Source: Nanobdellota archaeon
Lineage (GTDB): Archaea > Nanobdellota > Nanobdellia > Pacearchaeales > GW2011-AR1
Direction: 5' to 3'
Length of the DNA: 64,000 bases
Assembly: GCA_013329055.1 (NCBI GenBank)
Contig: DUKY01000011.1
Location: 16,096-80,095 of the forward strand
Shown here: in pieces, positions 8,848 to 39,185 of the stretch
Layout of the letters: each line of letters opens with the position of its first letter
Numbering within the stretch: the first letter of the stretch is position 1
The notes under the pieces: generated by a model
Database searches by the model: none
What the model was told of the DNA's origin: nothing
What the model saw: the letters and a program-made list of their open reading frames with translations, nothing else
Program-made: the position numbers and the translations under genes

Positions 8848-9390
8848 TTATATCAACCTCTCAATAATTTTAATTGTGATATTCAAAATCATAACAGCAT
8901 CCAATTCACTAACTTCTTTTAAAATTTCATGAACAGAATTATTTCTTTGACTTCTTAGTCCATGAAGGAAATGATAATCTGATTCTTCAATAAGATTTGT
9001 TTTTTTTGCTTCTTCAATTAAGTTGTAAAAATTCTTTTTATTTACTTTTTCTTTTGTTAAAGCTTCAGCAAATAAGTTAGCTAGACTATTCTCAAATCTT
9101 TCTTTTAATATATTTTCTATTAAAGCAGATGCAACAACCACAGAACTTCTAAATAATCCGTAAGAATAGGCCCTATATGATTCAACAAACGCAGAATAAT
9201 ATTCTGGTTTTTTTCCTAATTTAGAAATAAAATCCTGTGTTAAAGGAACTCTCTGAGCTTTGCTATTAATCTGCGACTGAAATGCTTTATAATTTTCTAA
9301 TGCTTGTTTATCCGCAGGATTTGGTGCAGAAATTGCTGCTCCGACAAATCCTCCAAGAATCATTGCTAAAAGTTTATCATTTTGTGTCAT
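8848..9390 (-). CDS. hypothetical protein with C-terminal Rx4H motif (HEPN/DUF4145-like)
   Basis: 180-aa ORF. The C-terminal LHGLRSQRNNSVHE contains R-NNSV-H. The N-terminus is hydrophobic and Gly-rich. Confidence 0.35.
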   Translation of the reverse strand: MTQNDKLLAMILGGFVGAAISAPNPADKQALENYKAFQSQINSKAQRVPLTQDFISKLGKKPEYYSAFVESYRAYSYGLFRSSVVVASALIENILKERFENSLANLFAEALTKEKVNKKNFYNLIEEAKKTNLIEESDYHFLHGLRSQRNNSVHEILKEVSELDAVMILNITIKIIERLI

Positions 9391-9394
9391 TTTT

Positions 9395-11566
9395 TTAAAA
9401 TATAATCTCCTTTAATTTTTTAATCTCTTCTACAGTAGGCTGATTGACTGCATAGGGGTTTAATATAATATCCCCGACTAAGATAAATTTAACCTTGCCA
9501 TCTAAATTTACTAATTGTTTTTTGAAATAAATTAATCCACTAACAATTTGTTTATCTTTGGCAATTGCATCATCTTTTCTTATTAGTTCGGGCTTTGTTG
9601 TTTCTCCAGTTTCATTATTCCTATAAAATTGGTAAGTCAATGTTCCAAAAAAACTATTTGCTATCATGTATTCATCTATAACCGAAGAACTTGCATCAAC
9701 GACAATAAAATACAAATCATTTCTAATACCCTTTTTCATTTCTTCAAAAGATTCCAGAGAATAAAATTGACTTGATTTTTCTTTGAGAATTTTATCAACC
9801 TTATTATTTATCGTAACTGCACCGTTATCTAAATGTAAACTTCTATCTCCTTTAGAGTTTTTAATCTCAAAAAAAACATTCTTATTATTTAATTTAATAT
9901 ATAAATCTGCATTATTGTTTTTATTCGGAATCTTTGGTTCAAGAATTGAATTTAAGTTCTCTTCCAAAAAAATAAATTTGTTTGTAAAGATAATCTCGCT
10001 AAAATCATCCCAAAACTTATCTTCATTTTCAAGACCCCTAATTAATGACGTGCGATTATCTTTATTCCGTTCATTAGAAATATTTTTTGAGTAACTAAGA
10101 AAATTCTCTATTTCATTCAAATATGCCTTTTTTAGTTCTTTATCTCTTTGTTGGCTACCTAACCAAAATAAAGGACTATATCTTTTTTTGTTATATAACT
10201 CTTTTAATTTATGTTTAATTATCTTGTCTAATTCGGAAAATTCTTTTAAAGATTCATCAATTTCATTAAATTCAAAATCAATAATTCTAAATCTTAATTG
10301 TTCCAATAATCCATTAATATAATTAATTAGTTCATCAAAATTATTTTTGTTAACCAATTCATCAAATGTTTTTTTATTTTCATTAATAAAATCTTTATTC
10401 TCGGATATTTCTTCTATCTTTTTAGCTAAGGGGAAAAATAAATTAAACGCCTTCTTTTTATCCTGGTCTTTGTAGATTATTCCAATAATTTTACTAACAA
10501 GTTCATAATAGAGTTTAGGATCCTTGTCAAAAATCTTTTTTTCCATCAATTCTCTTGAAGCAAATTCAACATTTTGAGAAGCCATTTTTTCAAAAATCCT
10601 TGGAAAGATATACTTATAATCTAACTTCTCAGTTTTTACTTTTTCAAAATTATCTAAAAAATAATCTATAAACTTCTCATTCTTTTTTACCAACTCTTGA
10701 ATAGCCCAATCAAAATGCTGAACTTTGAATTCTAAATCTTTATTTATCCAATAGATAAATAGCTTAGATATTTTTTCAATTTCGTCAGGGTAATCTATCA
10801 ACGGATACATCATATCGTTGATAATGGTTTCTTCTGAATTCTTATATAATTCTATTAATTCCAAAATGTGTTCTTTATCTAATTTAATTCCAATTGTTTT
10901 CCAAAATAGTAATCTATTCACTGAAATAATTTTTCTTTCGGCAAGTGATTTTATTTTCTCATAAAAATAACTTTTCTCGTTTTTATAGAATGACAAATAA
11001 AGATTCATAAGTTCGGTTAATATCCTCTCATCATGAGATAACATTGTCTTATTAAGACACTCTTTAACTTCAGTAGGTAAAATTTCTTTTTCATATTTTA
11101 CCAAAATTGCTTTAAGAATAGTATTTTTCGTTGGATATTCCAAATTTCTTTTAATTAAATCCTTTAATAATCCTTCATTGTAAAATGAATATCCCCCAAG
11201 TATTAACCCAGAGATTATTTTAAGATCTATATTATTAGATTTATTTTGGATTATATAATATAATTTTATTGCTACTTCTTGCTTTTCTTTTCCAACTTTT
11301 ATTAACATCTCAAAAAAAGGTCCACTTGCCATATCTCCTTTTACTTTTAAAAAGACACTATCTAAATATTCCAGATATTTTTCACTATCAGAAGCTAAAT
11401 CAAATAAGATTTCTATAGATAATTGAAAATAATTCCAAATAGACTCTTTATTTATTTCATCTAATAAGACATATTTGTTTTCTTCAGTTATATCTCCCTT
11501 TATCTTAGAATATTCTTCTTTTTGTTTATCAAATTCAAATCTAAATTGTTTAAATTTTTCAATCAT
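9395..11566 (-). CDS. large helical protein with C-terminal PD-(D/E)xK-like nuclease motif
   Basis: 723-aa ORF. About 500 aa are Lys/Glu/Leu-rich and predicted helical. The C-terminus has FSEII...ADLYIKLNNKNVFFEIKNSKG (E ... D ... ExK spacing). Confidence 0.35.
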   Translation of the reverse strand: MIEKFKQFRFEFDKQKEEYSKIKGDITEENKYVLLDEINKESIWNYFQLSIEILFDLASDSEKYLEYLDSVFLKVKGDMASGPFFEMLIKVGKEKQEVAIKLYYIIQNKSNNIDLKIISGLILGGYSFYNEGLLKDLIKRNLEYPTKNTILKAILVKYEKEILPTEVKECLNKTMLSHDERILTELMNLYLSFYKNEKSYFYEKIKSLAERKIISVNRLLFWKTIGIKLDKEHILELIELYKNSEETIINDMMYPLIDYPDEIEKISKLFIYWINKDLEFKVQHFDWAIQELVKKNEKFIDYFLDNFEKVKTEKLDYKYIFPRIFEKMASQNVEFASRELMEKKIFDKDPKLYYELVSKIIGIIYKDQDKKKAFNLFFPLAKKIEEISENKDFINENKKTFDELVNKNNFDELINYINGLLEQLRFRIIDFEFNEIDESLKEFSELDKIIKHKLKELYNKKRYSPLFWLGSQQRDKELKKAYLNEIENFLSYSKNISNERNKDNRTSLIRGLENEDKFWDDFSEIIFTNKFIFLEENLNSILEPKIPNKNNNADLYIKLNNKNVFFEIKNSKGDRSLHLDNGAVTINNKVDKILKEKSSQFYSLESFEEMKKGIRNDLYFIVVDASSSVIDEYMIANSFFGTLTYQFYRNNETGETTKPELIRKDDAIAKDKQIVSGLIYFKKQLVNLDGKVKFILVGDIILNPYAVNQPTVEEIKKLKEIIF

Positions 11567-12227
11567 CTTTTTTTACCTCATAATTATCTGATTTGTGTAT
11601 ATCAAATTTATCTGAATATATTCTATTTTTTAATTTTATTTTGAATTTTCTTATCTTTCCCTCTTCTATACAGAAAATTTCTACCGGGAATAAAGCAGGA
11701 TGTCCCGTCATTGCATCATGTTTTCCTAAAAAATCAAAACATTCAAAAAAATTTTCAAAAATTTCTTTTTCATAATCTGTCACCAAAAATAGTTTCTCTT
11801 GACATTGTCCAATAAATTCAGAATTTGGGGAGCCAATCATTGCAAAATTAACCTCTTCATTATGTTGTTCCTTAAGATTTACAAATTTTTTATAAGTTAA
11901 ATTGGTAATATCTATCACGAGAATTCCAGACCCCATATTCAAATATTTAATATGTTGCTCCGTCTCTATAGATGGTGCATAATTCTCATTACTCATTGCA
12001 TTTTCAATCCTTGCTTTAAAATCTTCAAGATTAATACAGCTAATGGATTGATTATACACATGATTGATTATTAAATCACTCCCCGATCCAGCAAATAAAA
12101 ATTTCCCAGCAATTAAGGGAAATATCTTTGTTTTTGAATAAGTAGATACATCATAAGCATGTTGAGTATCTCCTGCCAAGAACAATCTTTCTCCATTTTT
12201 TGTTTTAAACAATATTATTGAAGTCAT
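11559..12227 (-). CDS. proteasome-beta/HslV-like Ntn hydrolase (Thr1 after Met)
   Basis: MTSIILFKTKNGERLFLAGDTQ...KTKIFPL...FAGSGSD aligns by eye with the genuine PsmB in this window (TTILGIVCKNGIVMAGDNR...EKVYQI...FSGCGSATEA). Thr1, the Asp of AGD, the Lys and the GSG block are all present. Confidence 0.55.
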   Translation of the reverse strand: MTSIILFKTKNGERLFLAGDTQHAYDVSTYSKTKIFPLIAGKFLFAGSGSDLIINHVYNQSISCINLEDFKARIENAMSNENYAPSIETEQHIKYLNMGSGILVIDITNLTYKKFVNLKEQHNEEVNFAMIGSPNSEFIGQCQEKLFLVTDYEKEIFENFFECFDFLGKHDAMTGHPALFPVEIFCIEEGKIRKFKIKLKNRIYSDKFDIHKSDNYEVKKDD

Positions 12228-12358
12228 CCCCTTCCACCCCCAATCAAAAACTTCTTATCATAAGAAAGTTCCTCTTTATCTAACAGCTTTTCAACTATCT
12301 CTTTGTAAGTCTTAACTTTCTTTTTCAATGTAATCATAGCCCAATCATCTCCAAACAT
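12224..12358 (-). CDS. possible 44-aa ORF (below the ORF-track cut-off)
   Basis: Hand translation: MFGDDWAMITLKKKVKTYKEIVEKLLDKEELSYDKKFLIGGGRG. Its TGA overlaps the ATG of the Ntn-hydrolase ORF. Confidence 0.2.
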   Translation of the reverse strand: MFGDDWAMITLKKKVKTYKEIVEKLLDKEELSYDKKFLIGGGRG

Positions 12359-12527
12359 ATAACTTTTCTCCATTAAATCCGAAGACCAAAACATTTTTAT
12401 ATTCCATATTCCTGTATTTTATTGTAAGCGGACCGGTTCCGTAAAAGGTTTGATTATTCAAACTGACCAACGCTTTATGCGTGTGATTGGTTGGGAAGAC
12501 CGCTAATCGCTTACATTTTATTTTCAT
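12345..12527 (-). CDS. doubtful 60-aa ORF overlapping a GC-rich structured patch
   Basis: Listed in the ORF track, with no motif. It overlaps both neighbouring ORFs and may be spurious or a frameshifted fragment. Confidence 0.2.
   Translation of the reverse strand: MKIKCKRLAVFPTNHTHKALVSLNNQTFYGTGPLTIKYRNMEYKNVLVFGFNGEKLYVWR
12424..12514. other. GC-enriched 91-nt element closed by a 7-bp stem
   Basis: GTAAGCG (12424-12430) pairs with CGCTTAC (12508-12514). Internal hairpins are TTTGA-TTAT-TCAAA and CCAACGC-TTTAT-GCG..TTGG. By hand count about 46% G+C in a much more AT-rich context. Confidence 0.3.
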
Positions 12528-13023
12528 TTAATTCCTCCCAATAATTTTTAATTGAACTAAATGGAACATCAACAATATTTAACTTCTTTCCTCTAATCTG
12601 CCTATTTGTCTTTAATGCTCTTCTTCGGTATATTCTCGCATAATTATCCGCTAAAGAACCAATATTTCTTCCAAGTCTTTTCCTGAACTCAGAGATATTA
12701 ATAATTTCAAAAGAATAATTTTTTAACAAATAATCCAAAATATTTTTAACAACTTGAAAATCTTCATCATTACAAATTATCAAGGTTTTAAGATCTTTTT
12801 CAACATTTTTAACCAAAAGATAAATACAAATGGCATATAATTTTGCAGAATCCTCATAAATATTTTTTTTAAATAATCTTCTCTTAATTAACTCTAGTAA
12901 ATTTCCCTTCAAAGCACATCCATAATTAACTTTTGTTTTTGAGCCTACAAGAGCAATACCTATAGTTTTCTTCCAATAGATTCTTCCACTCATATCAACA
13001 TGAAAATCATCTTTTTCTATCAT
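12511..13023 (-). CDS. hypothetical protein
   Basis: 170-aa ORF with no recognisable motif. Its start overlaps the stop of the RHH-like ORF (ATGA). Confidence 0.45.
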   Translation of the reverse strand: MIEKDDFHVDMSGRIYWKKTIGIALVGSKTKVNYGCALKGNLLELIKRRLFKKNIYEDSAKLYAICIYLLVKNVEKDLKTLIICNDEDFQVVKNILDYLLKNYSFEIINISEFRKRLGRNIGSLADNYARIYRRRALKTNRQIRGKKLNIVDVPFSSIKNYWEELNENKM

Positions 13024-13193
13024 TCCTCCTCCCCCAATCCAGTTTCTTTTCTTATCATCTCTCTAAGTTTTGTATTTACAGTTTTGCCTTCCTGATCACA
13101 AAGTTTTTTGAAAAAAAGAAATTCACTTTTATACAATCTTGTAGAAACAATTTTCCTCTCTTCACCGCTTAAATCATGATTTTTTAAAACCAT
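13020..13193 (-). CDS. 57-aa ribbon-helix-helix (CopG-like) protein (below the ORF-track cut-off)
   Basis: Hand translation: MVLKNHDLSGEERKIVSTRLYKSEFLFFKKLCDQEGKTVNTKLREMIRKETGLGEEE. The pattern is a beta-strand (KIVSTRL) followed by two helices, as in RHH regulators or antitoxins. Confidence 0.45.
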   Translation of the reverse strand: MVLKNHDLSGEERKIVSTRLYKSEFLFFKKLCDQEGKTVNTKLREMIRKETGLGEEE

Positions 13194-13253
13194 AGAAAAA
13201 ATAAAAATAAGAACTATTTAAATATTTAGGTAGTTACCTGTATACACCTTTTT

Positions 13254-13279
13254 GTTCATAAATTGTATAATTTATGAAC
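13254..13279. promoter_or_regulatory. perfect 11-bp inverted repeat upstream of the RHH ORF (candidate operator)
   Basis: GTTCATAAATT-GTAT-AATTTATGAAC, about 60 nt upstream of the RHH start. An AT-rich TATA-like TTTAAATATTT lies at 13217-13227. Confidence 0.35.
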
Positions 13280-13394
13280 TATTTCCACTTTTCCATTTTT
13301 CCACAAGTATTATATACCATAACCATCTATATATTTTATCTGGGTAAGTCCTAGGGAGGTTTGTGTACCGGAATGGTGCACCTTGTCTTAATCT

Positions 13395-14033
13395 CTAGGG
13401 TCCGGATAACTTTTCAAACACTTCTTTCTTTATTACTATTTTATCCTTTATTGTGTTCATAAAATTGGAATCTTTGAATTCATAATTTCTAAAAATTGCC
13501 CATGAAATAAAATCTAAAACCTGCAAACAACCTTCTTTCTGAGAATCCTCGTGTCTTATGTCTATTTTACAATTAGAATTATTCTGAACTAAGCTAGATC
13601 TAATATAATTATCAAAATCCTCCCTCAAGGAACGATTGGTCTTGGACTTATCAACAATTAAACAAACATGATTATTATCCAAAGAGCATTCGTTTAAAAT
13701 AAGATTTGAAATGTAATTGTACAACTTATCTTTTTTGTTTTTTAGATATTCATAAACTTTGGATTTTTCAAGAATTATAACAAATACTTCTGAGTTTGTT
13801 TCCACAAATCTTTTTAAGATCTCTGCTCTTATTTTGTCTGTACTGTTATTTCCCTTTAGTTCAGGATACTTTTTCATTTTCTTTTTGATTATTTTTTGTC
13901 TGACTTTTTTCATTATTCTTCTTAAAGAATAAACTTCTTCCTCATCACAAGATAATAGAGCTATAACAAAATATTTGCTTGAAGTTGATTTAAATCCAAG
14001 TTCTCCACTCTCATCAAGAAAGATATATTTCAT
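13395..14033 (-). CDS. DUF3800-family protein
   Basis: N-terminal YIFLDESGELGF is characteristic of DUF3800. The ORF starts 1 nt after the hsdR stop. Confidence 0.65.
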   Translation of the reverse strand: MKYIFLDESGELGFKSTSSKYFVIALLSCDEEEVYSLRRIMKKVRQKIIKKKMKKYPELKGNNSTDKIRAEILKRFVETNSEVFVIILEKSKVYEYLKNKKDKLYNYISNLILNECSLDNNHVCLIVDKSKTNRSLREDFDNYIRSSLVQNNSNCKIDIRHEDSQKEGCLQVLDFISWAIFRNYEFKDSNFMNTIKDKIVIKKEVFEKLSGP

Positions 14034-14034
14034 C

Positions 14035-16782
14035 TTATTTCCACTTCAATTCATTGCATTTTTGAACAATTGTCTCCAATTGTTCCTTACTAAAAGCATC
14101 TAAAGGTCTTCCTTCTGCCAAAGGATGTTCTGCAAAATTCTTTAATTCAATATGTTTCGCCCGAACAAAAACCTGCTCTAACATCCTTAAAAATTTCAAT
14201 TGTTGAGAATTATAATGTTCATTTTTATCCATAACAAATTTATCAAATTCCCATTTAATCATTTCTTGGGGATCAGGTAATCCCTTTATTTCTAATAATC
14301 CTCTCAAGAATAAAATAAAATCTTGACTCTGTTGAATGTTATCAATAGTCCATCTAGGATTTAAGCCTCTTAAATTTTTTTCAATTTCCAATAGTTCTTT
14401 AGATGTGACTCCATCTCCATTTTTAATTTTTTCTAATAGCTTATTACTGTTAACAAAATAAGAATAGTTTTCACCTTCTTTAACTTTCATTATTTCTTTT
14501 TTAACATCAATAACTATATCTGGAGCATTGATTTTTAACATATTTTTTCTTTCTTGTTCGTAGAATATCATTAAAGGAGAAATTTCTCTAACTAAGAAAT
14601 CAACATCTTCAAAAGTTATTTCTTCCCAAAATTGCTCTTTTTGGATTCTTACTAAATCATTCCTTTTCTGTTTTACAGCATCTAAGTTCTTATCCCAAAT
14701 AGAATCTACCCTTTCTACAACAAACTCTTCAATCTTAGCAATTTTATTTTTATTTCCGGTTTTTATGCAATCAAAAAGTTTAACGCACTGAGAAATGAAA
14801 CCATAAACTTTTGCATTTTCAGAAGGAGTATAAATCAAAAGAGGAGCTATTTCATTTCTTAATTCCTCAACATGTTCTCGCAAATCAAATTTAGAAGAAA
14901 CAACTTTTGTTATAATATTTTTCTTCTCAATAACCAATGGAGATTCAACATCAATTTCTTTAATTGTATCACGAATTTGTTTTTCAACAATTTTTCTCTC
15001 CTTCTCATCTAAATTTTTCTCCAAAGCATCAACTTGTTCTAAAAATATTCTTGTTTTAGCGTCAGTTCCAGAAGATTTTTGTTTAAAAATGTTTAATTTA
15101 TGTTGCATCACATTAGACCAATCTCCAAATTTAAAATCCAATATCAAAAAATCTTCTTTTATGTGTTGTCCATCTTTATTTGTTGGCAACCATTCTTTAT
15201 TTTCACAGGCAGATAAACTCCTTGTTCCTCTTCCTAACATCTGCCAAAATCTAATTGAAGACATTACGGGTTTAACAAAAACTAAATTCATTACTTCAGG
15301 AACATCAACCCCAGTATCTAAAACTCCAACAGATAAAGCAATTCTTGGGCTATCTCTTTTCTCAAATCTTTTAACCTCATCCATGTAACGAGATTTATCA
15401 GAAGTAATAACTTTTACATCCTTTGCTAAAGAGGGGTAAAGTTTTTGAAATAATTTTTCTAAAGATTCCGCATGTTTTACACTTGCACAGAAGAAAATAC
15501 TTTTACATGGCCTATTATCATCTGATTTATAACACCTATCAACAAATTCTCTAATGATTAATTCGTTAGTTTTTTCATCTGTAAAAAATCTTTCAAATTT
15601 AGAACCTGGTGTTTGAAATTTCTCTGGGTCTTCCTCTTGTTGCTTTAATGCTTGTTGTAATTCTTTATTCAATTTTTTTCCTTCAATTCCTAATGAAAGA
15701 ACACTTGTTTCAATAATTTCTGCTACATAAGGAGCTAAAATTTTGTCTCTTACTGCAGAATCATAATCATATCTAAAGGTAGGTTTTCCATTATCACAAT
15801 TAAAGAGATCAAAAGTATTTCTTGTTTCTTCTGAAGAAGGAGTGGCAGTTAATCCAACTTTTAAAGCATCAAAATATTTGAAGATATCATTATTTTTATC
15901 ATAGTAAGAACGGTGTGCTTCATCAAAAATAATTAAGTCAAATGCTCCAGGACCAAATTTTTCATAAAATTTCCCTCTTGGTTTTTGAGGAGACATTAAA
16001 GTTTGAATTGTAGAAACATAAAATCTTGCACTACTTGAATATCCTTCTTCATTCAACTCACAAACTGGAGATTCAGGAAAAAATTTCTTAAATCCTTTTT
16101 CTTTTGCCTGATTTCCTAGAGAAATTCTATCAACAACAAATAGGACTTTTTGTACATATTCTGCTTTTATTAAACAATCTATTAAAGCCATTGCTACTCT
16201 TGTTTTTCCAGTTCCAGTAGCCATATTAATAAGAGCCTCTCTATGTCCATCAGAGAAATGTTCTAATACTGTTTTAACTGCCTCAACACACATCTTTCTG
16301 TTTAAAATAGTAGAACTCACCTTAACATTTGCTGGGTCTTTTCTTTGTTTCATTAAGCTAATTATTCTATGCAAATCTTGTTGAGAAAAAGGCAAGAGAA
16401 TTTTTCTTCTTCTATCTAAGTCATCAACATAATACCAATTTGTTCCGTTAGTTAAGAATATAGGGATTTTAATTTTAATTTGTTTTTCAATATCATCTCT
16501 ATAAGTTCGTGCTTGAATTTCCCCTTTTTCAATGTCAATAGAAGTTTTTTTTGCTTCTACAATTGCAAGGGGACTTCTATCTTCATCTAATAATAGATAA
16601 TCAATAAAATGATCCACTCCTTTTTCTATTCCAGCTTCACGACCAATATATTCTTTAGTTTTAAATTTGGATTTAACTGGATTAATTTCTTCTTTGACAT
16701 AATGTCCTTTAACTTTCCATCCTGTCCTTTCTAAAATTGGATCTATCAAGTTTTTTCTTGTTTGTTCCTCAGTAAGCCCCAT
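14035..16782 (-). CDS. hsdR: type I restriction enzyme R subunit (nuclease-helicase)
   Basis: N-terminal PD-(D/E)xK (DYLLLDED...AIVEAKK), Walker A MATGTGKT, DEAH box IFDEAHRS, helicase motif VI QMLGRGTR, and a long C-terminal helical domain as in EcoEI-type HsdR. Confidence 0.85.
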   Translation of the reverse strand: MGLTEEQTRKNLIDPILERTGWKVKGHYVKEEINPVKSKFKTKEYIGREAGIEKGVDHFIDYLLLDEDRSPLAIVEAKKTSIDIEKGEIQARTYRDDIEKQIKIKIPIFLTNGTNWYYVDDLDRRRKILLPFSQQDLHRIISLMKQRKDPANVKVSSTILNRKMCVEAVKTVLEHFSDGHREALINMATGTGKTRVAMALIDCLIKAEYVQKVLFVVDRISLGNQAKEKGFKKFFPESPVCELNEEGYSSSARFYVSTIQTLMSPQKPRGKFYEKFGPGAFDLIIFDEAHRSYYDKNNDIFKYFDALKVGLTATPSSEETRNTFDLFNCDNGKPTFRYDYDSAVRDKILAPYVAEIIETSVLSLGIEGKKLNKELQQALKQQEEDPEKFQTPGSKFERFFTDEKTNELIIREFVDRCYKSDDNRPCKSIFFCASVKHAESLEKLFQKLYPSLAKDVKVITSDKSRYMDEVKRFEKRDSPRIALSVGVLDTGVDVPEVMNLVFVKPVMSSIRFWQMLGRGTRSLSACENKEWLPTNKDGQHIKEDFLILDFKFGDWSNVMQHKLNIFKQKSSGTDAKTRIFLEQVDALEKNLDEKERKIVEKQIRDTIKEIDVESPLVIEKKNIITKVVSSKFDLREHVEELRNEIAPLLIYTPSENAKVYGFISQCVKLFDCIKTGNKNKIAKIEEFVVERVDSIWDKNLDAVKQKRNDLVRIQKEQFWEEITFEDVDFLVREISPLMIFYEQERKNMLKINAPDIVIDVKKEIMKVKEGENYSYFVNSNKLLEKIKNGDGVTSKELLEIEKNLRGLNPRWTIDNIQQSQDFILFLRGLLEIKGLPDPQEMIKWEFDKFVMDKNEHYNSQQLKFLRMLEQVFVRAKHIELKNFAEHPLAEGRPLDAFSKEQLETIVQKCNELKWK

Positions 16783-26107: not shown

Positions 26108-27385
26108 ATGTGGGGTGAAATATATAAAAAAGGTCTTTCAACAGTTATCATAACTATTCTCCTGATTGGATTTGCGTTAGTAGCGATTGGAATTGTATGG
26201 ACGATTATTTTTAATATTGTCAATGAAGAATCTGAAAGAATAGGTGCTAATCAGTTATCTTTAGATTTAAATTTTGGTAAAATTGATGTTGAATTTCCTA
26301 ATAGTTTGAATGTTTCTGTAAAAAGGGACGTTGGTGAAGGTAAAATAGATGGCATTAAAATTGTTGCTGATGATGGCAAAACTTCAGAGATATTTTCATT
26401 TAATGAATCAATAGATGAATTAGAAACAAAAGTTTTCACTTTAAATTTTGTTGATTTATCTATTTTAAATGCTGAGAAACTTACTCTTTCTCCATACTTT
26501 TTAACAATTACCGGTAAAGAAGAAATTTTAGGTGTTGCAGATGTTAGAAATTTAGATTTATTTAATATTGGCTCTTTTAAAACCGGACAATTTATTACTA
26601 ATGGTGATGCAGAAATGGGTGATACTACTAATTGGGTGAATATTGACGGTATTGATTCAGAATTTTATTCCGGCAGTTATTCCTTTGTTGATGCTGGTGG
26701 AGGAACTATTTATTCAAAAGAATTAATACCTGTAGATAAAAATTATCTTTATCATTTAGAAGGAATGTTTAAATCAGATGGTATTGATCAAAGTCGTCTT
26801 TATTATGGATTTCTTCCTTATGATGAAAATTTAAAATTTATACCTCCTCAATCAGTTGATGCAATTCTAAATACTGAAACAACTCTTTATGAAGAGGTTC
26901 ATTCAACAGATACTTCTATAAAATTAACCAGTTGCAATAATTGGATAATTTTATGGTATGCAGTTGTTGCTTTTGATATAGATGATTCCGGAAATTATAA
27001 TGACCTTCCAAATTATAAAACAAGTGATTACAATATCAGTAAAATCACAAATTACCCTAATTATTGTGAAATTGAAATTGGAACTGGATATGGAGTTCAG
27101 CATTATGCAAAATTTAATGCTCCTGCAGGAACAAAAGTTAGACAACATCAATCCGGAGGAACTTATATGTACACTGCGGCTAGTAATTCATTGGTTCCAT
27201 TTTCCTGGACAAATTATCAAGGTGATGTTACTGGCATGTTTAACGAGGGTACATCTAGTACTAAATGGAGAAAAAACTCTACTTATGCCGTTGTTTTAAT
27301 CTTGCCTAATTATAATCAAACTTATGCTGGTTCACCTCTTCAACCAAGATTATTATTTGATGATTTAAAATTAACTATCAGTTAA
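26108..27385 (+). CDS. secreted protein with archaeal class III (pilin-like) signal peptide
   Basis: KGLSTVIITILLIGFALVAIGIVWTIIFNIV N-terminus. The following domain (VKRDVGEGKIDGIKIVADDGKTS) is shared with ORF 51775-52221. Confidence 0.55.
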   Translation: MWGEIYKKGLSTVIITILLIGFALVAIGIVWTIIFNIVNEESERIGANQLSLDLNFGKIDVEFPNSLNVSVKRDVGEGKIDGIKIVADDGKTSEIFSFNESIDELETKVFTLNFVDLSILNAEKLTLSPYFLTITGKEEILGVADVRNLDLFNIGSFKTGQFITNGDAEMGDTTNWVNIDGIDSEFYSGSYSFVDAGGGTIYSKELIPVDKNYLYHLEGMFKSDGIDQSRLYYGFLPYDENLKFIPPQSVDAILNTETTLYEEVHSTDTSIKLTSCNNWIILWYAVVAFDIDDSGNYNDLPNYKTSDYNISKITNYPNYCEIEIGTGYGVQHYAKFNAPAGTKVRQHQSGGTYMYTAASNSLVPFSWTNYQGDVTGMFNEGTSSTKWRKNSTYAVVLILPNYNQTYAGSPLQPRLLFDDLKLTIS

Positions 27386-27429: not shown

Positions 27430-27846
27430 ATGGATTACAAAAAATTATCATTATTGGTGTTAATTATTCTTGTTTTAAATCTTATTTGGGAATTTTCTCA
27501 TTATAAACTTTATTTTGATTTAACCGGTATTCCTTCAAATTTACATTTAGTTTTAGCTTCGTTTGTTGATGTTATATTAATTTTTATTATTATTTTATTA
27601 ATTGCTTCAATTAAAAAGAAATTATCCTGGATAAATAATCCTTCAAAAGGGGATTATGTATTTTTTATAATTGTAAATTTTGTATTGGCATTTATTTGGG
27701 AATTAATTAATATTAATCTTGGAAGATGGGCATATAAAGAAATAATGCCTACAATTTTTGGTGTTGGTTTAAGTCCTATTTTGCAATTGCCTATTACTGC
27801 CGGATTAAGTTTGTTTTTGTTTAATTGGTTGAGTAAAAAATTTTAA
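27430..27846 (+). CDS. small four-TM membrane protein
   Basis: 138-aa ORF that is hydrophobic throughout. It lies immediately upstream of the type III PKS. Confidence 0.45.
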   Translation: MDYKKLSLLVLIILVLNLIWEFSHYKLYFDLTGIPSNLHLVLASFVDVILIFIIILLIASIKKKLSWINNPSKGDYVFFIIVNFVLAFIWELININLGRWAYKEIMPTIFGVGLSPILQLPITAGLSLFLFNWLSKKF

Positions 27847-27861
27847 ATCTGGATAAAATTT

Positions 27862-28968
27862 TTGAATAAAGAATATAAACTGGATTTTATTAGAAATCAT
27901 ATGAATATAATTAATAATATTTCAATGTTTTTTCCTGTAGCTCCTATTTCTCAGGAAAAATTAATTTTTCTTTTGAAAAATAAAGTGATTACTTCAAAGT
28001 ATTTAAACAGAACAAAAGAAGATATCGAAGCTGAAATTGATAAATATTCAGTTAATTCATCTAAAATCAATCAAAGAGCTTTAACAACTCAAATTAAAAA
28101 ATTTGATGAGTTAATGGCTGTTCCGGAAATTTGTGATGAAATTATTTATGGGTTATTAGAAAGAATATATCAAGGCAAAAAACAACCGAATCATATTGAA
28201 TATGTAACAAGTACTGAACATTCAATACCAACATCATTGCAAAGATTTTTAGCTTATAAGGGCTGGAATAATACTTATATAAATAATTTTTTTGACAGAG
28301 GTTGTGCCGGTGCACTTCCCGCAATACATAATGCATTAAATTTACCTTATGCAACAGATATTTTTTGTGCAGAAATATTTTCTCCATATGTAGATTTAAT
28401 TGCACAAAATTTAGCACAAAAACCTAATCCTCAATTAGTTATCGAAGGAACACTTTTTAGTGATGCTTCTGTTTTATGTTCAACAATTCCTCAAAAAAAT
28501 TTTAAAAAAGCAAAATCAAATGGATTGGAATTGTTAGCATATAATGAAATAATCATTCCGGATACCCATAAAGGAATTCATTTTAGATCATCAACAGATA
28601 AATTAAATTTATCTGTTTTACCGTATGTTCCTGCAAAAATAAAAGAATATGTTCTGGATTTTACAAAAGAACTTTGCAAAAAAGCAAATCTTGATTTTGA
28701 AAAAGAAAAAAATTCTTTTGTTTACGCAGTTCATCCCGGGGGTCCTAAAATTTTGACAAATATTCAGGAAGAATTTAATTTGCCATTAAGTTATTTTCAA
28801 AATAGTATTGATTTATTATATAATTATGGAAATTTTTCTTCTCCGACTTGTCCGGTTTTATTAAAGAATATTTTAGAAAATCCTGCAATTAAGAAAGGAC
28901 AAAAAATATTGGCTATTGCCGCAGGTCCTGGAATAACTATAAATGGTTTGGTATTAAATAAAATTTAA
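27862..28968 (+). CDS. type III polyketide synthase (chalcone/stilbene synthase superfamily)
   Basis: The Cys-His-Asn triad sits in the canonical contexts: RGCAGALPA, AVHPGGPKIL, YGNFSSPTC. A C-terminal AAGPGIT loop is also present. The track start is TTG, and an internal ATG at 27901 is an alternative. Confidence 0.8.
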   Translation: MNKEYKLDFIRNHMNIINNISMFFPVAPISQEKLIFLLKNKVITSKYLNRTKEDIEAEIDKYSVNSSKINQRALTTQIKKFDELMAVPEICDEIIYGLLERIYQGKKQPNHIEYVTSTEHSIPTSLQRFLAYKGWNNTYINNFFDRGCAGALPAIHNALNLPYATDIFCAEIFSPYVDLIAQNLAQKPNPQLVIEGTLFSDASVLCSTIPQKNFKKAKSNGLELLAYNEIIIPDTHKGIHFRSSTDKLNLSVLPYVPAKIKEYVLDFTKELCKKANLDFEKEKNSFVYAVHPGGPKILTNIQEEFNLPLSYFQNSIDLLYNYGNFSSPTCPVLLKNILENPAIKKGQKILAIAAGPGITINGLVLNKI

Positions 28969-28973
28969 TTAAA

Positions 28974-29618
28974 ATGAATAAAAAATTAACACAATCTCAA
29001 ATTTATAATGAATTTATGCTAAAATTTTATGATTTGACAGTTTTACAAATTTCTAATCAATTTATTTGGCGATGTCCTACAAAAAATTTACTTGATTTTT
29101 TTAACAAACATATTACTTCAAATCATTTGGATATTGGTGTTGGAACCGGATATTACCTTGATAAATGTATTTTTCCTTCTAAAAATCCACGAATAGGATT
29201 AATGGATATTAGTTCAGGAAGTATTAAAGCAACACAAAAACGAATTAATAGATATTCTCCGGAAAGTTATCATCAAAATATACTTGAAGAAATAACTGCA
29301 GAAATAGAGCCATTTCAATCTATTTCAATGAATTATCTTATTCATTGCATTCCTGGAAATATGGACGAAAAATTAAAAATTTTTGAAAATGTTCAGAAAA
29401 TACTTTTGCCACATGGAATTATTTTTGGTTCAACATTAATTTTTGATGAAAATCAAAACAGAATTGCAAAAAAATTAATGCAAAAATATAATGAAAAAGG
29501 TATATTCTATAATTATCATGATTCAAAAGAAGGACTAGAAAAAAATTTAGCAAAATATTTTAATAATTTTGAAACACAAAAAATCGGTTCGGCAATACTT
29601 TTTTTAGGACAAAATTAA
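28974..29618 (+). CDS. class I SAM-dependent methyltransferase
   Basis: Motif I LDIGVGTGYYL. 214 aa, starting 5 nt after the PKS stop. Confidence 0.75.
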   Translation: MNKKLTQSQIYNEFMLKFYDLTVLQISNQFIWRCPTKNLLDFFNKHITSNHLDIGVGTGYYLDKCIFPSKNPRIGLMDISSGSIKATQKRINRYSPESYHQNILEEITAEIEPFQSISMNYLIHCIPGNMDEKLKIFENVQKILLPHGIIFGSTLIFDENQNRIAKKLMQKYNEKGIFYNYHDSKEGLEKNLAKYFNNFETQKIGSAILFLGQN

Positions 29619-29629: not shown

Positions 29630-30571
29630 TTACGAAAAAGAAACAGGCAGTTGATTTGTTATAATTTTTTTAAAAAAATCTTCAAACATTTTTTCTTTAT
29701 TAACTTCTACAATTAAACACCATCTTGGACTTAAAATAATATTGTAAATCCCAATAACTTTGTCACCGCTATAAGTAATGTATTCAATAATTTCACCGGA
29801 AGATTGATTGATTTCTTTATTTTGTTTTATAGCTTCAATATTATTTATACATTGCGATACTGTTGAAGTATTAATTACCTGAGTTAATACTCCGCTATTT
29901 TCTTTTTTTAAAATTTTAGAAGGAGTTAATAAAAATAAATTTTCATTTACTAAATAACTTTCTATGAAACTGCTTTCTCCATTTAAGTCCATTAAGAATT
30001 GAACCATCTCTTCATCCGGAACTCTGTAAGAAAAATAACCCAAAAATTCTCCATTTTTGTTGAATATTTTTTTCATTATTAATAAATAAAATATCCCTGA
30101 ATCCGGATGAGGGAGAATCATGTATGTATTTTTTTTTTCATAAAAATCTTCTTTTAAGTACATTATTGATTCAGGATAAGATTCAGTAGTATCATATCCT
30201 ATCAACCATCTTTCTTTATCTGCAACGATTATTCCTTTGCTGTCAATTACTCCCATTGAAGTTGTAGGAAATTTTTCAAAATAATTTATTGTTTCATTTA
30301 ATGTTCGATTATACTCTAAATCCTGTTTATTTGTCTCTAATAATTTTATAAATAAATTTTGATTATAAGCCTGCCAAAAGAACTTTTCCTGTTTTGTAAT
30401 AAATTTTTCTATTTCCTGACTTTTATTTTCTAAGATTATATCCATTTTTGAATAAACATTTCTTTTTTGTTCATTATATTTTATTATGGCATTAACTGAA
30501 GAAACAACTAAAAGCATTATAAAAATAAATACTATAAATAAAAAATGATATTTATTTCGCTTAATTTTCAT
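29630..30571 (-). CDS. membrane-anchored extracytoplasmic protein (possible Cache-like sensor fold)
   Basis: N-terminal TM helix followed by about 280 aa of mixed alpha/beta composition. No output domain. The domain call is weak. Confidence 0.3.
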   Translation of the reverse strand: MKIKRNKYHFLFIVFIFIMLLVVSSVNAIIKYNEQKRNVYSKMDIILENKSQEIEKFITKQEKFFWQAYNQNLFIKLLETNKQDLEYNRTLNETINYFEKFPTTSMGVIDSKGIIVADKERWLIGYDTTESYPESIMYLKEDFYEKKNTYMILPHPDSGIFYLLIMKKIFNKNGEFLGYFSYRVPDEEMVQFLMDLNGESSFIESYLVNENLFLLTPSKILKKENSGVLTQVINTSTVSQCINNIEAIKQNKEINQSSGEIIEYITYSGDKVIGIYNIILSPRWCLIVEVNKEKMFEDFFKKIITNQLPVSFS

Positions 30572-30657: not shown

Positions 30658-31566
30658 ATGAATAAATCTTTGTCTGATGTTGAATTAAAACAAATTCTTA
30701 ATGTTAATCAACAGACATTAAATATTTTTAAAAAAATTCAAAAAGAAACAATTAAAGAAGCTAATAATTCCAATAAAAGATCAAAAAAAATTCATGTTCT
30801 TGGAATTTCCGGAAGTGCACGAGATGAATTTGATATGGCACAGCAAAAATCAAATTCCGAAGAGCTTTTAGAAACTTGTTTAGAACATTGTAAAAAGTTA
30901 GGTGCAACTACCGAATTAATTCCCTTAAGAAAATATAATATTCAACATTGCAAAGCCTGTTATTCAACGACAAATACTCAATGTCATTTTTATTGCTCAT
31001 GCTATCCAAAAGGAACTAAACAAGGCGATGACATGACTAATATACTTTATGATAAAATAATTAAGGCAGATGTAATAATTTTTGCTACTCCTGTGAATAA
31101 TTTCAAGATGTCAACATTAATGGCGACATTTATTGATCGGTGCATTAGTTTAGATGGTAGTTTAAAACCTGCAAATTCTAAAACTCCAAAAGATAAGGAA
31201 TTAAATATTAAACATACAAAATTTATTGAATTAACTGCTGACAATAATATTCCGGGTAGTGGATTTTTAAAAAGATTTTCTGGTAAAGTTGCTGGTGTTA
31301 TTGTTACGGGTCATGAGGAAGGTGCATCGATGGTTATTTCAAGCTTATTTATGACATTAAGTCATTTTGGCATGCTTTTTCCTCCATTTAATAATATGTA
31401 TGCTATGTCTTCTGTTTGTAATTCAACTTACAAAGATAAAAAAATTGTTGTAAGTGAATGTTATAAAAAAGAAGCAAGATTATTGGCTCAAAATTTAATT
31501 GTTGCTGCAAAAATTTCAAAAAAATGTAAATTAACTGATTGGAAATATGATTATTCTATTGATTAA
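30658..31566 (+). CDS. flavodoxin-fold NAD(P)H-dependent FMN reductase-like (iron-sulfur flavoprotein-like) protein
   Basis: IHVLGISGSARDE start of the flavodoxin fold, VIIFATPVNNFKMS, and several Cys (CKACYS...CHFYCSC). Confidence 0.55.
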   Translation: MNKSLSDVELKQILNVNQQTLNIFKKIQKETIKEANNSNKRSKKIHVLGISGSARDEFDMAQQKSNSEELLETCLEHCKKLGATTELIPLRKYNIQHCKACYSTTNTQCHFYCSCYPKGTKQGDDMTNILYDKIIKADVIIFATPVNNFKMSTLMATFIDRCISLDGSLKPANSKTPKDKELNIKHTKFIELTADNNIPGSGFLKRFSGKVAGVIVTGHEEGASMVISSLFMTLSHFGMLFPPFNNMYAMSSVCNSTYKDKKIVVSECYKKEARLLAQNLIVAAKISKKCKLTDWKYDYSID

Positions 31567-31580: not shown

Positions 31581-31823
31581 ATGATTAAAGAAAATATGCA
31601 AGAAATGAAAAAAAAAGTTTTATTTATGTGCATTTGTAAAAGCTGTCCGAGCTGGATTGAGTGCAAGGAAAAAGGTGGATTTTGTTTTCCAACCATCGGT
31701 AAAAGTAAATGTATTAAAAAAGAAAATGGATGTATTTGTGGAAATTGTCCTGTTACAAAAGAGATGGGGCTAAAGCATGGATATTATTGCACAAGAGGTT
31801 CAGAAAAAGAGCAATCTAGTTAA
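31581..31823 (+). CDS. small Cys-rich protein (DUF2769-like)
   Basis: 80 aa with CICKSCPSW, CICGNCPV and YYC. Confidence 0.45.
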   Translation: MIKENMQEMKKKVLFMCICKSCPSWIECKEKGGFCFPTIGKSKCIKKENGCICGNCPVTKEMGLKHGYYCTRGSEKEQSS

Positions 31824-33259: not shown

Positions 33260-35440
33260 TTAAATTCTTTTTCTTCTTAATAAATTTGCATTACTTACAA
33301 CAGATATACTCGATAATGCCATTGCTAATTCAGCGAAAATCGGATTTAATGTTCCTGCAACTGCTAATGGAATCGCTACTGTATTATAGAAAAATGCCCA
33401 AAATAAATTTTGCTTTATTTTTGAAAATGTTGCTTTTGATAAATTTATTGCTTGCACTACTCCTATTAATGAGCCTTTTGCTAAAACAATATCTCCTGCT
33501 TCAATTGCAATATCTGTTCCTGTTCCCATTGCGATTCCGACATTAGATTGTTTTAATGCAGGAGCATCGTTAATACCATCTCCCACAAAAGCTACAAAAC
33601 CTTTTTTTTGCAATTCCATTACTTTTTTTGATTTATCTTCAGGTAAAACTTGTGCTAAAACTTCTTTAATTCCAACTTGTTTTGCAATTGCTTTAGCTGT
33701 TCTTTCATTATCCCCAGTCAGCATTACTGTTTTGTATCCTTGTCTATTAAGAGCTTGAATTGCTATTTTAGAATCTTCTTTAATTGCATCAGATACACCC
33801 ATTATTCCTAATATTTTCTTTTCTTCAATAATAATCATTGTTGTCTGACCTTTTTCTTCATATTCCCGGATTTCTTTTTCTAATCCTTTTAATGATATTT
33901 GTTTTTCTTCGATAAATGTTGGGTTGCCGATTATAATTTTTTTATTTTTAATGATTCCTTCTACTCCTTTTCCTCTTATAATTTTGAAATTTTTGACATT
34001 TTGATATTTGCTTAAATTTGCTTTATTTACTATTGCTTTAGCTACAGGATGCTCACTTAATTTTTCTAAACTTCCTGCAAGTTCCCAAAAATATCCTTCA
34101 TTTTTTTTGTCTTTTATGAAATAATCTGTAACTTCAGGTTTACCTTTTGTGATTGTTCCGGTTTTATCGAATACAACAATTTTAACTTCTTTCATTGTTT
34201 GAATTGCTTCTCCTTTTCTAATTAATATTCCTCTTTTTGCACCCATTCCTGAACCAACAGTTAAAGAAATTGGAACTGCAAGACCCAATGCACAAGGACA
34301 GGCAATAACTAAGACCGAAATAGCAACTCCTATTGATCTTCCTAAATCAAATGATGTTATATACATCCAAGAGATAAAAGTTAAAAATGATAATACCAAA
34401 ATAATTGGTACAAAAATTCCTGTGATTTTATCTGCAACTTCTTGTATCGGAACTTTTGTTCCCTGGGCTTCTTCAACTAATTTTATTATGTGTGATAAGA
34501 ATGTATCTTTTCCGATTTTTGTTGCTTTTATATATAATATTCCGTCTTGATTTATTGTAGCACCGATAACAGGACTTTTTACTATTTTGTCCACAGGTAA
34601 AGATTCTCCGGTAATCATACTTTCATCAACACTACTTTCTCCTTTGGTTACAATTCCATCAATTGGAATTTTTTCACCTGGTTTAACAATGATTATATCC
34701 CCTATTTTAACTTCTGATATTGGAATTTCTATTTCTTCTGTTCCTCTTAATATTCTGGCATTTTTTGCACCTAATTCTAATAATTTTTTGATTTCACTTG
34801 TTGCTTTTCCTTTTGCTTTATCTTCGATATATTTTCCTGTAATAAAAATTGTCATTATCATTCCTGAAACTCCGGAATAATCTTGTATTTCCATAAAAAA
34901 ACTTAGAATTCCTGTAAAATACGCAACCAAAGTTCCTAAAGCGATTAGTGAATCCATTGTAAATTGCAATTTCACAAATCCTCTTAAACCAGATTTAATT
35001 ATAGAAAAACCAAAAATAAAAAGTATTGGAAATGATGATATTAATAATAAGGGAGTCATAACTTCTTCTGAAACAATCATCATACCAAGAATTTTAGGAC
35101 CATACATTAATGTTGCAATTATAAATGTAAACATCCATACCCCAATTAATTTTTTCTTCCATGTAAGAATCTCAGGATGTTTTTTTGGATTTGGAGAATT
35201 GGGAGAATTTGAAGAGTTTTTAGTCTCTTCAAATTCTACTGCTACCGGGTTATAACCTGCATCTTTTACAGTTTTTTTCAATCTACCTTCTGTAATTGAA
35301 TCTTCAACTTCTGCAAAAGCACTTCCCATAATAGCATTTACAGCTATTTTTTTTGCACCAATTTTTTGCAAAGCTTTGTCTACGTGCGATGCACAAGATG
35401 CACAGGTCATTCCTTCTATTGTTATTTTGACTTTTTTCAT
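33260..35440 (-). CDS. copA: copper-translocating P1B-type ATPase
   Basis: N-terminal [17 protein letters not shown] (ACPCALGLA), DKTGTIT, TGDN and GDGINDAP. Confidence 0.92.
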
Positions 35441-37772: not shown

Positions 37773-39185
37773 TTATCCCCCACAACTTCCGCTACTTCCT
37801 CCACCACAACCACAACCCCCTGAAGAAGCGGTTTTTGTATTCGCTGTTTTAATTTCTTCTTTTGTCGCAGTACCGTCATCTGTGACTATAAATGTTCCAG
37901 GAATCATTCCCATCCAACAACTCCAAGGGATAACTCCAACTTCAGTTGGAGTAAATTCAATTGTCTGTTTTCCTTTTTGAATTGGGAAATTTAAATTTAA
38001 TTTTGGAACCTGAATTGCATTATTACAATTAGTTATTTCCTGTCCGTCAATAACCCATCTGACAGGAATTCCTTTTTGCAAGACAAATGTATCCGGAGTC
38101 CAACCACTTCCATCAACAGTCATTTCAATTACTTGATATCCTTCTGAATCTATAACAATATTATTAGTTGCACCTGGATTATTAGTTGCTAATAAACTTT
38201 TTACATCATATCCTGAACCAATTAATGAAAACCCTCGGTTTAACATTATTAATCCTAAAATTAAAACAATAATTGCTGAAATTTTTAATATCTTTTTTGT
38301 TGTATTTTTACTTATTACATTCGTTATTCCTCCAAAACCTAACATTACTGGCATTGTTCCAAGTCCAAATGCCATTAAACTTAATCCTCCCTGAATCATA
38401 CTCCCTGTTCCTGCTGCATAAATATACAATGCCTGTAATGGACCGCAAGCAATAAATAGACCATTAAGTAATCCTGTTGTCATTGGTGCAATATAATGAC
38501 CTGAATATTTTTTTGTTGCAATTTTTGTTAAAAATTTTGGATTAAATTGAAATTTTTTAAAAAAAGATATACCAAACATTGATAAAGAATATGCTATCAT
38601 AAATATTCCGGCAAAGATTGCAATTGTTCCTCGTAATTGGGGTGTAAAAAAGAATATACTACCGATTAAACCAAAGAAAGCACCAATAATTGTATAAGAA
38701 ATTGTTTTACTTGTTCCATAAATTAAATGTTGTAAAAAAGATTTATGTCCATTTATTGCATTTTTTGCAGTATATGAAACCATGAATCCTCCGCACATTG
38801 CAATACAATGAAAACCTGTTAAAAGACCTGCGAAAAAGAGTAATAATAATGAAACATTTTCTAATTCATTAAAATTAATCTCTGGTATAGTTAATCCTAA
38901 ATTTTTAAAGAAAATGAATAAAACTGCTAATGTTATTATTGATAATAAACCAATATGCCAGTATATAGTATTTGATTTTTTTACTGTTGTATTTATTTCA
39001 TATCCTAAATCTTTTATAATTTCTTCAATTTTGTTTTCTGAAATTTTATCACTTTCAAAATCAATTTCTGCCTGACCTTTTGCAAAATTAACTGTGATGC
39101 TATTTACTTTATCTTTTAATGCATCTTCAATTTTACTTGCGCAAGAATTGCAATGCATTCCATTAATCTTAAATATTTTTTTCAT
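37773..39185 (-). CDS. HMA-domain / DsbD-TauE-like permease / cupredoxin-like fusion protein
   Basis: N-terminal HMA GMHCNSCASKI, about 6 TM helices with a CIAMCGG motif, a C-terminal beta-rich domain (IPVRWVIDG...CNNAIQVP...WSCWMGM), and a Gly/Cys tail GGCGCGGGSSGSCGG. Confidence 0.65.
   Translation of the reverse strand: MKKIFKINGMHCNSCASKIEDALKDKVNSITVNFAKGQAEIDFESDKISENKIEEIIKDLGYEINTTVKKSNTIYWHIGLLSIITLAVLFIFFKNLGLTIPEINFNELENVSLLLLFFAGLLTGFHCIAMCGGFMVSYTAKNAINGHKSFLQHLIYGTSKTISYTIIGAFFGLIGSIFFFTPQLRGTIAIFAGIFMIAYSLSMFGISFFKKFQFNPKFLTKIATKKYSGHYIAPMTTGLLNGLFIACGPLQALYIYAAGTGSMIQGGLSLMAFGLGTMPVMLGFGGITNVISKNTTKKILKISAIIVLILGLIMLNRGFSLIGSGYDVKSLLATNNPGATNNIVIDSEGYQVIEMTVDGSGWTPDTFVLQKGIPVRWVIDGQEITNCNNAIQVPKLNLNFPIQKGKQTIEFTPTEVGVIPWSCWMGMIPGTFIVTDDGTATKEEIKTANTKTASSGGCGCGGGSSGSCGG

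Follow-up and report, generated by a model that had tools for sequence, protein, structure and literature searches.

The stretch of DNA analysed here, called the window throughout, comprises 64,000 nucleotides (nt) of contig DUKY01000011.1 from a Nanobdellota archaeon. It carries a gene for a type III polyketide synthase (PKS) that resembles the bacterial enzymes ArsB and ArsC, followed on the same strand by a gene for an S-adenosylmethionine (SAM)-dependent methyltransferase (MT), while a third gene, encoding a membrane-anchored Cache-like protein, converges on the pair. This unit, with the PKS and MT genes on one strand and the Cache-like gene facing them, is conserved in three lineages, and a fourth has it without the MT. 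An earlier reading of the letters alone (the original prediction) had drawn attention to the PKS, to the MT and to a small membrane protein upstream of them, but it overlooked the convergent gene at 29630-30571, which accompanies the PKS more consistently than any other gene. The module is small, three genes in about 2.7 kb.

The polyketide synthase and its two partner genes

The PKS gene occupies positions 27862-28968 of the forward strand and encodes 368 residues if translation starts at the TTG at 27862, or 355 residues if it starts at the ATG at 27901 (Met14 of the longer form). The ATG is the more likely start, because homologues align from about residue 14-16 and because the annotated length of other proteins in its 90% cluster is 355 residues. 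The motifs on which the original prediction had built its assignment are all there and in order: RGCAGA (residues 146-151, with Cys148 at 28303-28305), HPGGPKIL (residues 291-298, with His291 at 28732-28734), YGNFSSP (residues 322-328, with Asn324 at 28831-28833), and finally the GPG loop (residues 355-357, 28924-28932). The prediction had also allowed for a misaligned triad. Cys148, His291 and Asn324 align with the Cys-His-Asn triad of ArsC and are invariant in every alignment made, including those with 16 and with 47 homologues. Phe199, a gatekeeper-type residue within an LF.D motif, and Arg72 are conserved in all PKS alignments.

The Pfam profile Chal_sti_synt_C (PF02797) matches the protein at 67.1 bits, against a cut-off of 27 (E 2.3e-18, profile positions 7-149 of 151). 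Its N-terminal half has diverged and is shorter; the N-terminal domain of chalcone synthases (PF00195), which is present in several homologues, was not detected in the window PKS at E <= 0.01. The AlphaFold2 model, built on 47 homologues (pLDDT 91.6, pTM 0.91), still aligns end to end with ArsC (about 390-410 alignment columns, TM-score 0.87). Two entries of the Protein Data Bank (PDB) stand out among the experimental structures: 3VS8, which is ArsC from Azotobacter vinelandii, and 3VS9, its G284W mutant (PMC6274091). Both came first in a phmmer search of the PDB, at E 1e-40 over residues 95-368, and the next match followed at 4e-11, which places ArsC about 30 orders of magnitude ahead of every other PDB sequence. 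All 60 sequence matches listed are type III PKSs. When the model was searched with Foldseek, ArsC again came first (TM-score 0.87-0.88), followed by CylI, PKS11, PKS18 and ORAS, which are long-chain alkylresorcinol/pyrone synthases, and the top 50 matches were all type III PKSs, with FabH absent from them.

A thiolase-fold enzyme of primary metabolism, in particular one of the KAS III/FabH type, was named in the original prediction as the assignment that would displace the PKS. It could appeal to a match with ACP_syn_III_C (PF08541, 35 bits, Pfam) and to the failure to detect PF00195. However, PF02797 scores higher than PF08541, and nothing came near threshold among the NCBIfam models, where the FabH models reached 18-27 bits against cut-offs of 249-437 and covered the last ~75 residues only. 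The sequence and fold matches described above are type III PKSs, and the triad lies in HPGGP and GN.SS motifs. The open reading frame (ORF) is therefore a genuine type III PKS and not a FabH/KAS III enzyme. An identical protein is already in GenBank under the name "chalcone/stilbene synthase protein [archaeon GW2011_AR13]" (KHO50690.1, on JWKU01000049.1 of assembly GCA_000805965.1), and AR13 is listed as a member of the Pacearchaeota (PMC5383146).

The second gene (28974-29618, forward strand) encodes a class I SAM-dependent MT of 214 residues (PF08242, 38 bits), whose SAM motif I, LDIGVGTGY at 29127-29153, is intact. As had been read from the sequence, it begins 5 nt after the PKS (spacer 28969-28973), and the two genes are probably co-transcribed. 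No characterised close relative of the MT was found in a profile search of the PDB, in which NodS was the best match at E 1e-4. Solved structures were also considered as a guide to its substrate, and this route was rejected, the matches being spurious PPR repeats and generic hits to NodS and a tRNA methyltransferase. Outside its own species, the homologue closest to the window MT is P0176 (JGI 3300042731), at 54% identity. There, the preceding gene ends 1 nt before the MT start and a convergent gene follows; this contig is a candidate further instance of the PKS-MT-Cache arrangement.

The third gene (29630-30571, reverse strand) is convergent with the MT gene, an 11-nt gap lying between them. 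It encodes a membrane-anchored, extracytoplasmic double-Cache-like protein of 313 residues, with an N-terminal transmembrane helix and two invariant cysteines. Homologues of about 310-335 residues, also with an N-terminal transmembrane helix, are encoded at three other archaeal PKS loci, L009 (7122-8123), L115 (7732-8736) and L116 (3921-4901). The dCache_1 profile, whose cut-off is 45 bits, matches the window protein at 24.4 bits and the L009 protein at 32.1 bits, in both cases from profile position 2 to 239 of 240. A profile made from four Cache-like homologues gave a weak match to the ectodomain of the sensor kinase NagS (E 0.009).

Selection was assessed at the DNA level against two strains, L007 and L095, that are 93-95% identical to the window. 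The PKS, the MT, the Cache-like protein and two of their neighbours described below, a four-helix membrane protein and an FMN_red-like protein, are all under purifying selection. The ratio of nonsynonymous to synonymous substitution rates (dN/dS) is 0.24-0.26 for the PKS, 0.19-0.23 for the MT, and 0.12 and 0.11 for the two neighbours, respectively; the frames of the three module genes are intact in both strains. The Cache-like gene has a value of 0.07; it is under strong purifying selection despite missing a C-terminal transmembrane helix that the copies in L009, L115 and L116 keep, and that was sought in other frames of the window gene and not found.

Distribution, host and genomic surroundings

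The window was compared with the loci L009, L115 (whose PKS is P0297) and L116 (whose PKS is P0296). In L115, the PKS gene (6001-7092) overlaps the MT gene (7089-7742) by 4 nt, and in L116, the PKS gene (2187-3278) overlaps the MT gene (3271-3924) by 8 nt. These MTs are, respectively, 45% (E 5e-59) and 51% (E 8e-70) identical to that of the window, and the PKSs of the three lineages share 34-36% identity. The pairing of PKS and MT that the original prediction had seen in one genome is thus found again in two other lineages, where the genes overlap. The Cache-like proteins of L009, L115 and L116 are 37-41% identical to the product of 29630-30571 (41% for the lineages that also have the MT), and in all four lineages their gene abuts or overlaps, tail to tail, the 3' end of the MT gene, or of the PKS gene in L009. 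In fact, when the 13-kb L009 locus is set against the 64-kb window, the PKS and the Cache-like protein are the sole homologous genes. Homologues of the MT and of the Cache-like protein were not found in the flanks of some 95 bacterial PKS loci.

Since every close relative of the PKS that has been characterised is bacterial, the cassette might be suspected of having come from contaminating bacterial DNA or a mis-binned contig, of having been transferred very recently, or of being a decaying relic, and contamination had been foreseen as a pitfall in the original prediction. The contig context speaks otherwise. The same 64-kb stretch carries aCPSF1/FttA (TIGR03675, 840 bits against a cut-off of 580), an archaeal-type proteasome beta subunit, FKBP26 and a presenilin-type signal-peptide peptidase. 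The exact PKS protein is indexed in 27 collection blocks, from which 24 carrying contigs were read, and it occurs in many independent groundwater assemblies. The order of the genes is the same in many independent assemblies, contigs of 200-257 kb among them. As to a recent transfer, the PKS and MT genes have the GC content (0.27), the GC content at third codon positions (GC3; 0.125) and the codon usage typical of the window (z-scores of -0.4 to -1.7 for these measures), and their codon divergence lies below the mean of genes of similar length. As to a relic, dN/dS values of 0.2-0.26 and intact frames argue against it. The 47.7-kb contig of L115 is archaeal too, with CDC48, a type II methionyl aminopeptidase and a family B polymerase.

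Type III PKSs had been described as rarely reported in archaea, and the searches agree. A search of 185,579 species-representative genomes returned 572 relatives, and among the best 80, which were looked at, two are archaeal: a 93% identical copy (Candidatus Nanoarchaeia, GTDB) and L009 (archaeon CG_2015-01t_29_47, 37%). The rest of these 80 are bacterial ArsB/C-like enzymes from Azotobacter, Methylocystis, Flavobacterium, Polyangiaceae, Bdellovibrionota and others. An exhaustive HMMER search of a library of 1.84 billion cluster representatives gave 1229 matches, of which only P0295, P0296 and P0297 are full-length at 36-39% identity, the others being at 35% or less; one of these three belongs to the L009 lineage. 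Finally, a scan of the JGI metagenomes with a profile specific to the archaeal PKS clade returned nothing but the 93% variant (L095, carried by a contig of 257 kb) and a representative of the L009 type (L096). Among the library representatives is also P0294, a predicted protein of 4818 residues with 12 PKS-like stretches (E 4e-69), which is either a giant tandem multi-PKS or an artefact of assembly or gene calling.

In a neighbour-joining tree, the window PKS groups with L008, L009 and P0295 in 79 of 100 bootstrap replicates, and with P0296 and P0297 as well in 60 of 100. This archaeal clade branches within the Ars-like enzymes of bacteria, close to a group with a Pseudodesulfovibrio member. 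The original prediction had called lateral transfer plausible, and on this basis a transfer of the PKS from a bacterium to an archaeon is indeed plausible, although a distance tree cannot prove its direction. Any such transfer was old rather than recent, however, given the host-like GC and codon usage.

The small membrane protein that was counted as part of the cassette in the original prediction does lie directly upstream of the PKS gene and in the same orientation (27430-27846, forward strand, 138 residues). Its stop codon is 15 nt from the TTG and 54 nt from the ATG of the PKS, and its AlphaFold2 model consists of four long helices (pLDDT 95). It is not a member of the cassette, however. 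The family, in which identities are 46-66%, comprises more than 139 clusters, from Pacearchaeota, Woesearchaeota, Nanoarchaeota and one bacterium of the Minisyncoccales (candidate phyla radiation); no PKS was found in the contexts of two homologues that were inspected, and no homologue was found at the L009, L115 and L116 PKS loci. Because the family occurs without a PKS and is missing from other PKS loci, the gene is a resident DPANN gene and a bystander to the module. A false lead is thereby removed, although the family remains of note as uncharacterised membrane proteins that are widespread in DPANN archaea. With its invariant in-helix polar residues (N17, W20, E21, Y28, H39, D47, E91, W100, Y102, P107, S115, P116 and Q119), the protein looks like a small membrane enzyme. 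An assignment as a terpene or lycopene cyclase was rejected, as the matches were sub-threshold only (PF25129, Pyr4-like, at E 2e-5 in one homologue; TIGR03462, whose cut-off is 39.4 bits, at 17.6), and comparison of the model with PDB folds gave no significant match, the best being the Insig homologue MvINS at E 0.08. The TATA-like sequence TTTATAAA is found about 35 nt upstream of its ATG, which means little in DNA of 27% GC. A promoter and terminator scan of the window, made with a model of bacterial type on DNA of an archaeal host, did no better than on shuffled sequence, and Rfam and tRNA scans of the 64-kb window gave no matches. Upstream of this gene and downstream of one for a PP-loop ATPase, an ORF of 425 codons (26108-27385, forward strand) encodes a protein whose N-terminus weakly resembles archaeal type IV pilins. 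Strain L007, although 95% identical, does not have this ORF, which is thus a strain-variable insertion adjoining the module.

On the other side of the module, the forward strand encodes a Cys-rich FMN_red/flavodoxin-like flavoprotein of 302 residues (30658-31566; PF03358, 70 bits) and a Cys-rich DUF2769 protein of 80 residues (31581-31823; PF10967, 60 bits). The pair is kept in the 93-95% identical L007 and L095 and absent from L009, L115 and L116. It could act as an oxidoreductase on the product (a quinone or phenol), but nothing ties it to the PKS in other lineages. Further away, two proteins with an HMA domain are encoded on the reverse strand, a copper-type P1B ATPase (33260-35440) and a DsbD_2 membrane protein to which the HMA domain is fused (37773-39185). 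Two larger regions of the window, both also on the reverse strand, can be mentioned. The first, at 1631-16782, is a defence-type island with a SNF2-family helicase, a type I restriction-modification system (HsdM, HsdS, HsdR), a Schlafen/AlbA_2-HATPase protein, DUF4145 and DUF3800 proteins, and a 723-codon ORF with no Pfam match. The second, at 53789-63983, encodes a 1583-residue RCC1-repeat protein with DUF4215 modules, then three DUF4215/VWA proteins; its GC content is 0.31-0.35, against ~0.27 elsewhere in the window, and it looks like a cluster of large proteins of the surface or adhesion type.

Proposed function and alternatives

DPANN archaea such as the Pacearchaeota are regarded as metabolically minimal, and as dependent on a host for lipids and most building blocks. 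A polyketide module kept by selection means that at least a few of their lineages invest in a specialised aromatic or phenolic-lipid compound. To find such a module, with a sensor-like partner, in genomes this small is unexpected. The explanation towards which we lean is that the three genes form a DPANN module in which a methylated phenolic polyketide is made and then handled or sensed by the Cache-like protein. The family, the fold, the catalytic residues, the archaeal host, the gene linkage, the purifying selection and the position among bacterial enzymes are observed; the starter, the number of extensions, the ring type, the methylation site, the part played by the Cache-like protein and the use of the product, as a lipid of the membrane or surface or as a signal, are inferred as follows. 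The PKS would load an acyl-CoA starter on Cys148, extend it with malonyl-CoA in decarboxylative steps, most likely three as in the Ars enzymes, and cyclise the chain, an alkylresorcinol-type phenol being a somewhat likelier outcome than an alkylpyrone. The MT, presumably translationally coupled with the PKS, would methylate the product on a phenolic oxygen or on a ring carbon and thereby make it more hydrophobic. The Cache-like protein, tethered to the membrane and with an outward-facing domain, would bind or handle the compound at the outer membrane face, or sense it. A role for the product in the membrane or at the cell surface may be supposed.

The ring type can be approached through a single residue. 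Trp281 of ArsB forces an aldol closure that leads to alkylresorcinols, Gly284 of ArsC leads to pyrones, and a swap of the residue swaps the products (PMC6274091). The column in question holds Phe241 (28582-28584) in the window PKS: 3VS8 and 3VS9 differ solely at this column, and the alignment of the A. vinelandii locus has the Trp of ArsB and the Gly of ArsC there. Within the archaeal clade, Trp is found in L009, P0296 and P0297, and Phe in the window and P0295. An aromatic residue at the position of ArsB Trp281 somewhat favours a resorcinol, which would therefore be, if the module works as proposed, the better guess over a pyrone.

A number of observations weigh against the proposed polyketide module. 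First, Phe241 of the window is not Trp, so the resorcinol call is a weak one. Moreover, the cavity-lining motifs of the archaeal clade are off consensus, with TSTEH or TSTTET in place of TCSGY and Cys330 in place of Ile or Leu, and the loop of the window PKS reads AAGPG where the consensus is GFGPG; Ars-like chemistry is therefore not to be assumed. The PKSs of this clade also have an insertion near residue 185 (6 residues relative to ArsB and ArsC). Second, acyl-CoA ligase, fatty-acid synthase, acetyl-CoA carboxylase and acyl carrier protein (ACP) were not found among the Pfam-annotated ORFs of the window, so that the source of the starter and of malonyl-CoA is not accounted for; domains of fatty-acid synthase, ACP and acyl-CoA ligase were likewise not found in the gene tables of L115 and L116. 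Third, the Cache-like protein matches Pfam below threshold, has no output domain and, in the window, lacks the C-terminal helix of its homologues. Fourth, proteins closely related to the MT (44-54% identity) are encoded by bacterial genes that stand alone, in surroundings unrelated to the module, and L009 has the PKS and Cache-like genes without an MT. The monophyly of the archaeal MTs was considered as support for co-inheritance and rejected: the clade was recovered, but in 18 of 60 bootstrap replicates. Finally, the phylogeny of the PKS is by neighbour-joining only, with the clade support given above for its core and for all six members.

The likeliest alternative is a signal-and-receptor module, in which the PKS would use a short starter such as acetyl- or malonyl-CoA to make a small diffusible methylated aromatic polyketide, and the extracellular domain of the Cache-like protein would be its binding protein or receptor. 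The product would then be a self-contained cue between cells or between symbiont and host, and not a membrane lipid. The Cache-like gene is indeed the most constant partner, in four of four lineages, and its product resembles the ligand-sensing dCache_1 domain and the NagS ectodomain. Genes for the supply of fatty-acyl groups were not found nearby, and the altered cavity motif (TSTEH or TSTTET) contains a charged Glu. On the other hand, this protein has no cytoplasmic output domain, its Pfam Cache match is sub-threshold, and its gene converges on the MT gene, so that it does not share a transcript with the PKS and MT genes. The enzymes that the PKS matches best in sequence and fold (ArsC, CylI, PKS11, PKS18 and ORAS) are, besides, all users of long-chain acyl groups. 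We regard this alternative as unlikely.

Less likely again, and in our view quite improbable, is that the PKS acts alone and that the MT is an unrelated neighbour with another substrate, the adjacency of the two genes being inherited synteny. This would agree with the stand-alone bacterial genes that are the nearest MT homologues outside the module (no PKS was found beside the six MT homologues inspected), with the PKS that L009 keeps without an MT, and with the weak support for the MT clade. It is harder to reconcile with overlaps of 4 and 8 nt or a gap of 5 nt in three lineages with PKSs that share no more than 34-36% identity and with entirely different neighbours otherwise. Operons of a PKS and an MT are also a well documented functional unit in bacteria (PMC10896814). 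As for a KAS III/FabH-type enzyme and a cassette of contaminating, recently acquired or decaying genes, both are effectively refuted by the family assignment and by the contig context, respectively.

The proposed module for a methylated phenolic polyketide can also be put in a bolder form, which we think less likely than not: a DPANN pathway not seen in bacteria and present in several lineages, by which a methylated phenolic lipid is made and is displayed or sensed at the cell surface. If so, such a pathway for polyketide lipids would be the first in Archaea, and it would provide organisms that are unable to build ordinary membrane lipids with a self-made amphiphile for the membrane or for the contact between symbiont and host. 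Azotobacter cysts, in which alkylresorcinols replace phospholipids, offer an analogy for such an amphiphile.

Comparison with known systems

The archaeal PKS is most similar to ArsB and ArsC of A. vinelandii, which are its best match in both sequence and fold and with which it shares the triad; at the position of ArsB Trp281 it has an aromatic residue. It differs from them in several respects. Identity over the full length is about 26-31%, the archaeal enzyme is about 30 residues shorter at the N-terminus, and it has TSTEH instead of TCSGY, Cys330, an AAGPG loop, and Phe instead of Trp. The partners differ as well: the type I fatty-acid synthases ArsA and ArsD, which supply the starter in the Ars system, were not found near the archaeal PKS, which has an MT and a Cache-like protein as partners instead. 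The next-best fold matches, CylI, PKS18/PKS11 and ORAS, have TM-scores of 0.75-0.80 and 17-21% identity, and belong to other subfamilies and contexts.

In its gene arrangement, the module is closer to operons in which a type III PKS is combined with a SAM-dependent MT. Such operons make methylated alkylresorcinols in picocyanobacteria (hidABC, for hierridin) and in planctomycetes, with O-methylation by HidA and probable C-methylation by the Mtr protein of Gimesia (PMC10896814). The likeness to hidABC and to the planctomycetal MT-oxidoreductase-type III PKS operons lies in the operonic association of the PKS with the MT. However, the order of hidABC is reversed in the archaeal module, where the PKS comes first. 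Furthermore, an FAD oxidoreductase is conserved in the hidABC-like operons, whereas the third gene of the archaeal module is the Cache-like one and the FMN_red gene is lineage-specific.

In other bacterial systems, an alkylresorcinol is tailored to membrane phenolic lipids or quinones, as by SrsABC of Streptomyces griseus, FtpA of Myxococcus, AgqA-D of Actinoplanes and the mycobacterial polyketide-quinone operon (PMC10896814). The archaeal module resembles srsABC, too, in the logic of its operon. These clusters include hydroxylases or prenyltransferases, whereas the archaeal module has no conserved tailoring oxygenase. Several of them use membrane methyltransferases of the ICMT type, in contrast to the soluble class I enzyme of the archaeal module.

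No characterised archaeal type III PKS was found in the searchable literature, which holds bulk surveys of biosynthetic gene clusters only; one of these lists antiSMASH "polyketide synthase" clusters in metagenome-assembled genomes of Nanoarchaeota (PMC9902471). The enzyme family and the gene label are thus already known, and no study of this gene was found in that literature. What the window and its relatives contain is a rare three-gene variant, specific to archaea, of the bacterial pairing of type III PKS and methyltransferase. The bacterial operons of this kind offer no parallel to the constant presence of a Cache-like protein, which may hint at a function at the surface or in sensing that bears on episymbiosis.

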